Source: a virus
Taxonomy: Duplodnaviria; Heunggongvirae; Uroviricota; Caudoviricetes
Reading direction: 5' to 3' (one strand)
DNA length: 7,819 nucleotides
IMG/VR virus record: IMGVR_UViG_2547132252_000009
Under the pieces are notes generated by a model. It was not told the DNA's origin, did not search any database, and saw nothing but the letters and a program-made list of their open reading frames with translations. The position numbers and the translations under genes were made by a program. This document shows positions 6,979 to 7,152 of this stretch, one piece after another. How positions within the stretch are numbered: the first letter of the stretch is position 1; every line of letters begins with the position of its first letter.

Positions 6979-7135
6979 TGAATTTTGTGATGCGGTGAAT
7001 GCGGCTCAGCGCACGCGGAACAGTTAAATCGGTAAAGCGGTCATTTGCTGAGTAACGAGAATGCTCTGTATCCGGCGTTAATTGTTAACTGGTTAACGTC
7101 ACCTGGAGGCACCAGGCACCGCATCACAAAATTCA
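6979..7135 (+). promoter_or_regulatory. Perfect 19-bp inverted repeat (6979-6997 / 7117-7135) enclosing 119 nt between dicF and dicB; candidate long RNA stem / processing site
   Basis: tgaattttgtgatgcggtg is the exact reverse complement of caccgcatcacaaaattca; the 3' arm ends 17 nt before the dicB ATG. Confidence 0.5.
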
Positions 7136-7152
7136 TTGTTGAGGACGCGATA

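Follow-up and report, generated by a model that had tools for sequence, protein, structure and literature searches.

The perfect 19-bp inverted repeat between dicF and dicB in the DNA analysed here (the window: 7,819 nt of a Caudoviricetes virus, IMG/VR record IMGVR_UViG_2547132252_000009) is probably best explained as the basal helix of a conserved structured RNA and as a substrate of RNase III in the read-through dicBF transcript. DicF and DicB, whose operon is still under study (PMC10448788, 2023), are well-known prophage-encoded regulators of cell division. The spacer between the two genes has so far been treated solely as a processing site; it is now seen to hold a conserved RNA with a predicted pseudoknot. 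The same RNA precedes kilR in prophage Rac and tciA in P1-like phages and appears to be kin to STnc100 and PasD, which links three lines of work and suggests a common module for the control or processing of toxic prophage genes. No description of the enclosed RNA at the dicF-dicB locus was found in the literature searched.

The inverted repeat and the RNA that it closes

The repeat was originally predicted as exact reverse complements at 6979-6997 (TGAATTTTGTGATGCGGTG) and 7117-7135 (CACCGCATCACAAAATTCA) with 119 nt between them, and these coordinates are exact. The proposed extension to about 21 bp was likewise recovered, with a G-U pair at 6978/7136 and an A-U pair at 6977/7137; beyond 21 bp, one A-G mismatch is followed by further pairing, which takes the arms to 6974-6997 and 7117-7140 (24 nt, 92% complementarity). 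The 19-bp repeat is the longest perfect inverted repeat of the whole window. In dinucleotide-preserving shuffles (n = 200) the longest inverted repeat was 13 bp, and about 8.5e-6 repeats of 19 bp are expected; the repeat is real and lies far beyond chance. The arm duplex has an energy of -33.1 kcal/mol. Folding of the RNA from 6970 to 7160, which had been proposed as a check, gave a minimum-free-energy structure that closes the stem at -72.1 kcal/mol (z = -5.9), and a larger fold of 6900-7220 closes the same stem, the z-scores of the single-sequence folds being -5.9 and -6.4. RNase III substrates are mostly uninterrupted helices of about 20 bp or more, and the helix found here has 19 perfect bp, 21 bp when the G-U and A-U pairs are included, and 23 of 24 positions paired overall. 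The repeat does not have the form of an intrinsic terminator: its arms are A+U-rich, no U-run follows 7140, and a terminator scan of 6600-7400 returned none. The neighbouring genes are dicF and dicB, as had been named from the sequence (Table 1); the U-run of the DicF terminator abuts the 5' arm directly, and the dicB ATG lies 17 nt past the end of the 19-bp 3' arm.

Two elements had been pointed out within the enclosed 119 nt, GTTAAC-TG-GTTAAC and CCTGG/CCAGG. Both are present, at 7084-7097 and 7102-7106/7112-7116, and they correspond to the stem and loop of helix P3 and to helix P4, respectively. They are not incidental palindromes, and the repeat is the basal helix of the conserved pseudoknotted RNA to which they belong. 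The parts of this RNA and of its flanks are listed in Table 1.

Table 1. Features of the dicF-dicB spacer and its flanks (window positions; predicted pairings are given as RNA).
Feature	Position	Strand	Basis or remark
DicF small RNA with intrinsic terminator hairpin and U-run	6915-6972	+	Rfam RF00039, 76.9 bits (criterion 48) at 6916-6967
DicF 5' end			Placed by alignment to MG1655 dicF, 1649382-1649434
P1 extension, 5' arm	6974-6990	+	Pairs with 7124-7140; repeat search and folds
Predicted RNase III cut, 5' arm	after about 6988	+	Homology with the 72-nt K-12 DicF mapped onto MG1655
P1 core, 5' strand (UGCGGUG)	6991-6997	+	In every family member; pairs with 7117-7123
Pa hairpin (UGCG-GCUCAG-CGCA)	7000-7013 (7000-7003 with 7010-7013)	+	Conserved CU-NN-GCG loop motif
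P2, 5' strand (CGGA)	7016-7019	+	Pairs with 7071-7074; compensatory changes in 3 of 4 pairs
Pseudoknot, 5' strand (CAGUUAA)	7021-7027	+	Pairs with P3 loop, 7085-7091
Variable insert	7028-7070	+	Alignments; length and sequence vary among copies
P2, 3' strand (UCCG)	7071-7074	+	Covariation
P3 hairpin	7075-7099 (7075-7081 with 7093-7099)	+	Compensatory changes in 7 of 7 pairs
P3 loop bases UUAACUG, pseudoknot 3' strand	7085-7091	+	
P4 hairpin (CCUGG-AGGCA-CCAGG)	7102-7116 (7102-7106 with 7112-7116)	+	Most conserved motif of the superfamily; recovered by RNAalifold alone
P1 core, 3' strand (CACCGCA)	7117-7123	+	Pair counts and RNAalifold
P1 extension, 3' arm	7124-7140	+	Repeat search and folds
Putative second RNase III cut	near 7127/7128	+	Usual 2-nt stagger assumed
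dicB Shine-Dalgarno (GAGGA)	7141-7145	+	Read from the sequence; immediately past the helix
dicB, 62 codons and stop codon	7153-7341	+	Pfam PF05358, 131.8 bits; RefSeq annotation of a 100% identical O157:H7 record

Conservation of the pairing was assessed in 22 copies of the module and in 33 more diverse cores. In the 22 copies, 91.5% of cells pair versus 30-41% when the partners are slid, compensatory changes occur at 19 pairs, and none of 500 shuffles attains these figures. In the 33 cores, 91.8% of cells pair (30-39% with slid partners), and changes on both sides of a pair were counted in 117 cells versus 38.6 +/- 4.6 after shuffling; kinship among sequences can beat shuffle controls in the absence of structure, but the slid controls argue against that explanation here. 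The third pair of P4 illustrates the pattern, being U-A in 17 of the 33 sequences and G-C in 16. For the pseudoknot, 33 distinct complementary pairings were found among 50 non-redundant members of the superfamily (for example CCAGUC/GACUGG, AUCAGCA/UGCUGAU and AGACUGACA/UGUCAGUCU), with a mean self-complementarity of 6.98 nt versus 4.95 +/- 0.16 nt when the loops were permuted among sequences, a value matched in 0 of 2000 permutations. The Pa pairs are invariant across the 33 sequences and, because they never vary, provide evidence neither for nor against that helix. RNAalifold used alone recovers just P1, P4 and a variant of Pa in a slightly different register. The predicted RNA of about 125-140 nt thus has four helices in addition to the basal helix, together with a pseudoknot, and all of these except Pa are supported by compensatory changes. 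A protein-coding reading of the enclosed region, which is overlapped by ORFs at 7045-7341 (+) and 7041-7289 (-), was rejected because the insert changes in length by numbers not divisible by three and because substitutions track the base-pairing.

RNase III processing and the 3' ends of DicF

Two 3' ends of DicF are given in the summaries in PMC5069750 and PMC9438474, both citing Faubladier et al. 1990: the main form of 53 nt ends at its own Rho-independent terminator, and in E. coli K-12 a form of 72 nt is made by RNase III processing of read-through dicBF mRNA. In MG1655, where dicF occupies 1649382-1649434, the 72-nt end falls at 1649453, within the 5' arm at the junction of AAAGTGAATTTTGT and GATGTGGTG, 9 nt below the top. 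From this mapping of a size quoted in later papers, we infer that the RNase III cut behind the 72-nt DicF lies in the present helix. Cutting at this position is itself already known, according to the same summaries, having been reported for K-12 in 1990; as they describe K-12 processing, those summaries make no mention of a structured RNA inside the helix. The original prediction that the stem is an RNase III substrate defining the DicF 3' end is partly supported, for one end of the two. Because the 72-nt end lies inside the 5' arm and the 53-nt end at the DicF terminator, the stem would set the minor, read-through 3' end and not the main one.

The K-12 dicBF operon is an orthologous locus, 82% identical to that of the window, and 2 of the 24 arm positions are changed there, with G-U pairing retained at each. 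The window, in contrast to K-12, has an additional U and an additional A ahead of the arm and a different variable insert, and the long form of DicF would be about 74 nt here because of the two extra nucleotides.

In a comparison of coverage between an rnc mutant and the wild type (Gordon 2017, PMC5371410 Table S1), position 1649470 in the dicF-dicB intergenic region is listed with 26 reads in the mutant and 0 and 0 in the wild type, and the site is flagged as known by the authors of PMC5371410. The position lies 8 nt inside the enclosed core; the signal is shallow, the position is coarse, and the list contains many weak sites.

A separate RNase III site upstream of DicF, different from that considered here, generates the 5' terminus of the 190-nt form of DicF (PMC10448788). 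An irregular hairpin was observed at 6770-6814, roughly 190 nt upstream of the terminator and approximately at the place expected for that 5' cut. The region of the 190-nt precursor was also considered as a decayed copy of the module, which was not supported: 6640-6975 contains no STnc100-like match at E <= 10, and its fold is unremarkable (z = -2.3).

The most likely course of events is that both arms are cut and that DicF, the core RNA and dicB mRNA are thereby separated. The helix would consist of a core P1 of 7-9 bp and an extension of 14-17 bp belonging to the RNA of about 125-140 nt, and transcription would reach the module only by read-through of the DicF terminator. Cleavage of the 5' arm would then yield long DicF (72 nt in K-12, about 74 nt here), and a staggered cut in the 3' arm, postulated from the usual geometry of the enzyme, would liberate the core as an RNA of about 135 nt that keeps 9 bp of P1, and the dicB mRNA would begin with a leader of about 25 nt. 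We infer the second cut, the liberation of the core and whatever consequences this has for dicB. Cutting at the 72-nt DicF end would leave the core with exactly 9 bp of P1, which is the P1 length of natural relatives with a short basal helix; this match between the predicted product and a natural short form is suggestive.

Distribution of the module and length of the basal helix

The window is 100% identical to several O157:H7 chromosomes, in which it belongs to a prophage next to yccA. Elsewhere in the window, a direct repeat of about 192 nt was observed at 261-452 and 485-675 (blocks of 49 nt at 100% and 143 nt at 97% identity, with a spacing of 223-224 nt), inside a minus-strand gene annotated as a DUF1627 domain protein. 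A toxin-antitoxin pair of RelB/RelE type was also observed at 4765-5243, at the head of the dicB operon, inserted between a prophage repressor-like gene (4336-4737) and a ydfA-like gene (DUF1391, 5482-5676).

When phage genomes were searched, the stem-bounded part matched alone, without dicF or dicB, in the P1-like phages P7 and D6, Stx phages, Rac-type phages and a Klebsiella phage. In the annotated phage copies, the module lies just upstream of a gene start, that of kil/kilR, terB/tciA or dicB. A motif scan of viral contigs recovered at least 120 loci with 138 copies, which were of two types. K-type copies, which include that of the window, carry the 5' motif GGTGAATGCGGCT; in all of those with a called ORF, the next ORF (dicB, kil, tciA/terB or others) starts 32-45 nt after the core, and in the copies examined it is on the strand of the module. 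In a further scan, of one genome per species, K-type copies were found in Escherichia, Shigella, Citrobacter, Klebsiella, Raoultella, Enterobacter, Pantoea, Mixta and Pseudescherichia. S-type copies carry the 5' motif GGTGAATCCCCC and are Rfam STnc100 proper, scoring 52.6-131.9 bits, and the full 206-position model was matched in all of those checked. They often occur in tandem arrays just after tRNA genes, and the apparent ORFs that start at the end of their core run through a terminator-like hairpin and look spurious.

Several individual copies were also noted. STnc100 copies were seen in tandem runs of four directly behind tRNA genes (L018, 2265-3380 and 4009-4160; L010, 8044-8560), and in the P1-like phages P7 and D6 (L001, L007) a K-type copy likewise follows a tRNA cluster. 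In the search of phage genomes, the records MT713136.1 (Aeromonas phage AP1) and PP818812.1 (Actinobacillus phage vB_Apl-pPE4) contain 84-88% identical copies of the E. coli prophage segment; given the unrelated hosts, these may be assembly contamination or chimeras.

Thirty-seven distinct pairs of arms fall into two classes of basal helix, long and short. The long helices have 16-26 pairs and energies of -26 to -40 kcal/mol, and their arm sequences are unrelated (AAAGUGAAUUUUGUGAUGCGGUG in E. coli, GGCUUUAAGGUGCGGUG in Citrobacter and CAGGCUUUGCAAUGCGGUG in Klebsiella/Raoultella, with further variants in Pseudescherichia, C. braakii and Enterobacter). The short helices, of 9 bp, are those of P1-like phages, of Pantoea/Mixta and of E. 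coli/Shigella copies upstream of a KilS-like terminator. Because a long helix recurs with unrelated arm sequences, the length of the helix itself, and not the sequence of its arms, appears to be under selection.

Kinship with STnc100 was evaluated with the Rfam model RF02076, which matches the window at 6981-7130 with 33.6 bits (E = 6.5e-6) over model positions 21-154 of 206. This score is below the gathering cut-off of 47 bits, and the scan of the window at the gathering threshold did not return STnc100; K-type copies in S-type loci were likewise not reported by the Rfam STnc100 scan, in which the S-type copies there gave the scores stated above. The helices of the window RNA occur in the order of the model, namely P1, Pa, the variable hairpin, P3 and P4, followed by the conserved 3' motif. 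The pseudoknot holds across the whole STnc100 superfamily and is absent from the Rfam consensus structure. A 2026 preprint on PasD/STnc100 (bioRxiv 10.64898/2026.05.13.724894) makes no mention of dicF, dicB, kil or a pseudoknot. The window RNA is probably a divergent K-type branch of the family of prophage RNAs to which STnc100 and PasD belong; taken jointly with excision by RNase III and a function of its own, this is a tentative proposal that we rate at somewhat below an even chance.

Possible roles and comparison with known systems

Beyond the processing of the helix, we regard it as possible, with the balance slightly against it, that the dicF-dicB, kilS-kilR and tRNA-tciA spacers hold one unannotated pseudoknotted K-type RNA that is excised by RNase III and functional in itself, either as a trans-acting or protein-binding RNA or as a cis sensor for division inhibitors. 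Under the corresponding account of the single locus, the core RNA would be the functional unit and the helix merely its packaging, with the core serving the toxic gene as a cis sensor or protein-binding RNA or acting in trans as a small RNA. The high conservation of unpaired nucleotides in the core, the covariation of the pseudoknot and the fixed distance of the module before start codons are consistent with such a role, which we would still put a little short of evenly balanced: no ligand, protein partner or expression platform was recognised in the K-type, its S-type relatives stand alone, and fewer reads cover the core in the wild type than in the rnc mutant. A role in trans would fit better than a cis sensor because the S-type relatives have their own terminators and occur in tandem arrays. 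The relatives offer leads only: PasD is an Hfq-dependent small RNA (PMC8550237; bioRxiv 10.64898/2026.05.13.724894), and in EPEC no CsrA-bound chimera partner is more abundant than PasD2 (bioRxiv 10.64898/2026.08.12.744399). The invariant P4 hairpin at 7102-7116 and its relatives carry GGAGG/GGA, at which binding of CsrA is possible.

The original prediction also held that the stem could gate translation of dicB. In such an arrangement, a helix that ends at or pairs with the dicB ribosome site would silence dicB until it was opened by RNase III or by ribosome-independent melting. The end of the helix at 7140 does abut the Shine-Dalgarno sequence, the terminator U-run of dicB-type copies pairs with UUGAGG and extends the duplex to 26 pairs, and tight control of genes as toxic as dicB and kil is plausible. 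However, pairing with the Shine-Dalgarno sequence is weak and relies mostly on G-U, and no anti-Shine-Dalgarno element is conserved among the copies. Sequestering of the ribosome site is not conserved either, because in kil-type, Citrobacter, Raoultella and other long-helix copies the site lies 8-25 nt past the helix and is unpaired; a gate of this kind is accordingly considered unlikely.

It is very improbable that the repeat is a feature of the DNA, whether as the inverted ends of a small mobile element or as a recombination linker at lambdoid mosaic boundaries: the neighbouring genes do vary among the lambdoid, P1-like and Klebsiella phages that carry the module, and on contig L097 a DicF-type 5' side is joined to a kil-type 3' side within the module, but the arms covary between lineages rather than keeping one sequence, the internal helices and the pseudoknot covary as well, the next ORF keeps to the strand of the module in the copies examined, and the arms have no target-site duplication (flanks TTTTTAAAA versus GTTGAGG), so that the combination of terminal repeats, target-site duplication and either orientation that marks a miniature transposable element was not found. 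The contig in question (L097, 4248-4415 on the minus strand) carries a K-12-type dicF with its 5' arm, joined to a kil-type 3' arm and kil, which places a recombination junction inside the module.

Three further candidates were rejected. A tRNA-like element was considered in view of the 7-bp P1, the two unpaired bases, the 4-bp hairpin, the P4 that abuts P1 and the location of relatives near tRNA genes; ARAGORN found no tRNA in the window, the P4 loop has 5 nt and not 7, and the likeness to the stack of acceptor and T-arm is loose. A resemblance to the specificity domain of RNase P RNA, noted by eye against the M1 sequence, was not borne out, as no RNase P family matched even at E <= 10. For an internal dicB promoter, one weak match was obtained over the Shine-Dalgarno sequence and start codon, not above the level in shuffled sequences.

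The preferred reading, that of a basal helix cut by RNase III, has a parallel in prophage Rac. The small RNA kilS of MG1655 (1418405-1418502, minus strand) is Hfq-associated (PMC8175672) and ends at a DicF-like terminator, which is directly followed by the same long-helix module and then by kilR, so that both loci place a small RNA with this kind of terminator before the module and a small gene for a division inhibitor after it. The Rac locus differs in its small RNA and protein, in a one-base bulge in the 3' arm and in a ribosome site further from the helix. The MG1655 annotation (NC_000913.3) has no feature at 1418230-1418404 (kilS-kilR) or at 1649435-1649608 (dicF-dicB), and the module is present in both. 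The kilR-sieB site listed by Gordon 2017 at 1418510 was considered as a cut in the Rac stem and rejected, since by MG1655 coordinates it precedes kilS by 8 nt. Some E. coli and Shigella genomes carry a short-P1 K-type copy upstream of a KilS/DicF-like terminator (L133, 1445-1568 on the minus strand; L167, 5315-5488), and the same place in MG1655 Rac (L171, about 330-400) keeps remnants alone, GGTGGTGAA ... ACCGGGCACAACAC. Because of these copies and remnants, KilS-type small RNAs may derive from the 3' tails of such elements.

With STnc100 and PasD, the window RNA has in common the order of its helices (P1, Pa, a variable part, P3 and P4), the same pseudoknot and the invariant motifs GGUGAAU and UCACC-GGGAGGCACCCGG-CACC. 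It is unlike STnc100 in the sequence of Pa, in its long basal helix and in having a start codon in place of its own terminator; the 3' tail and terminator of a free-standing small RNA (model positions 155-206) were not found, the dicB ribosome site following the helix and the terminator scan giving none.

RNase III sites are known from phage polycistronic mRNAs, as in the early region of T7 and the N leader of lambda. By analogy, cutting of the dicBF helix would resemble these cases in that a long intergenic helix is cut, functional RNAs are separated and the 5' leader of the downstream gene is reshaped. The T7 and lambda N sites, however, are simple hairpins with internal loops, whereas the helix described here would close an independently conserved, multi-helix pseudoknotted domain.
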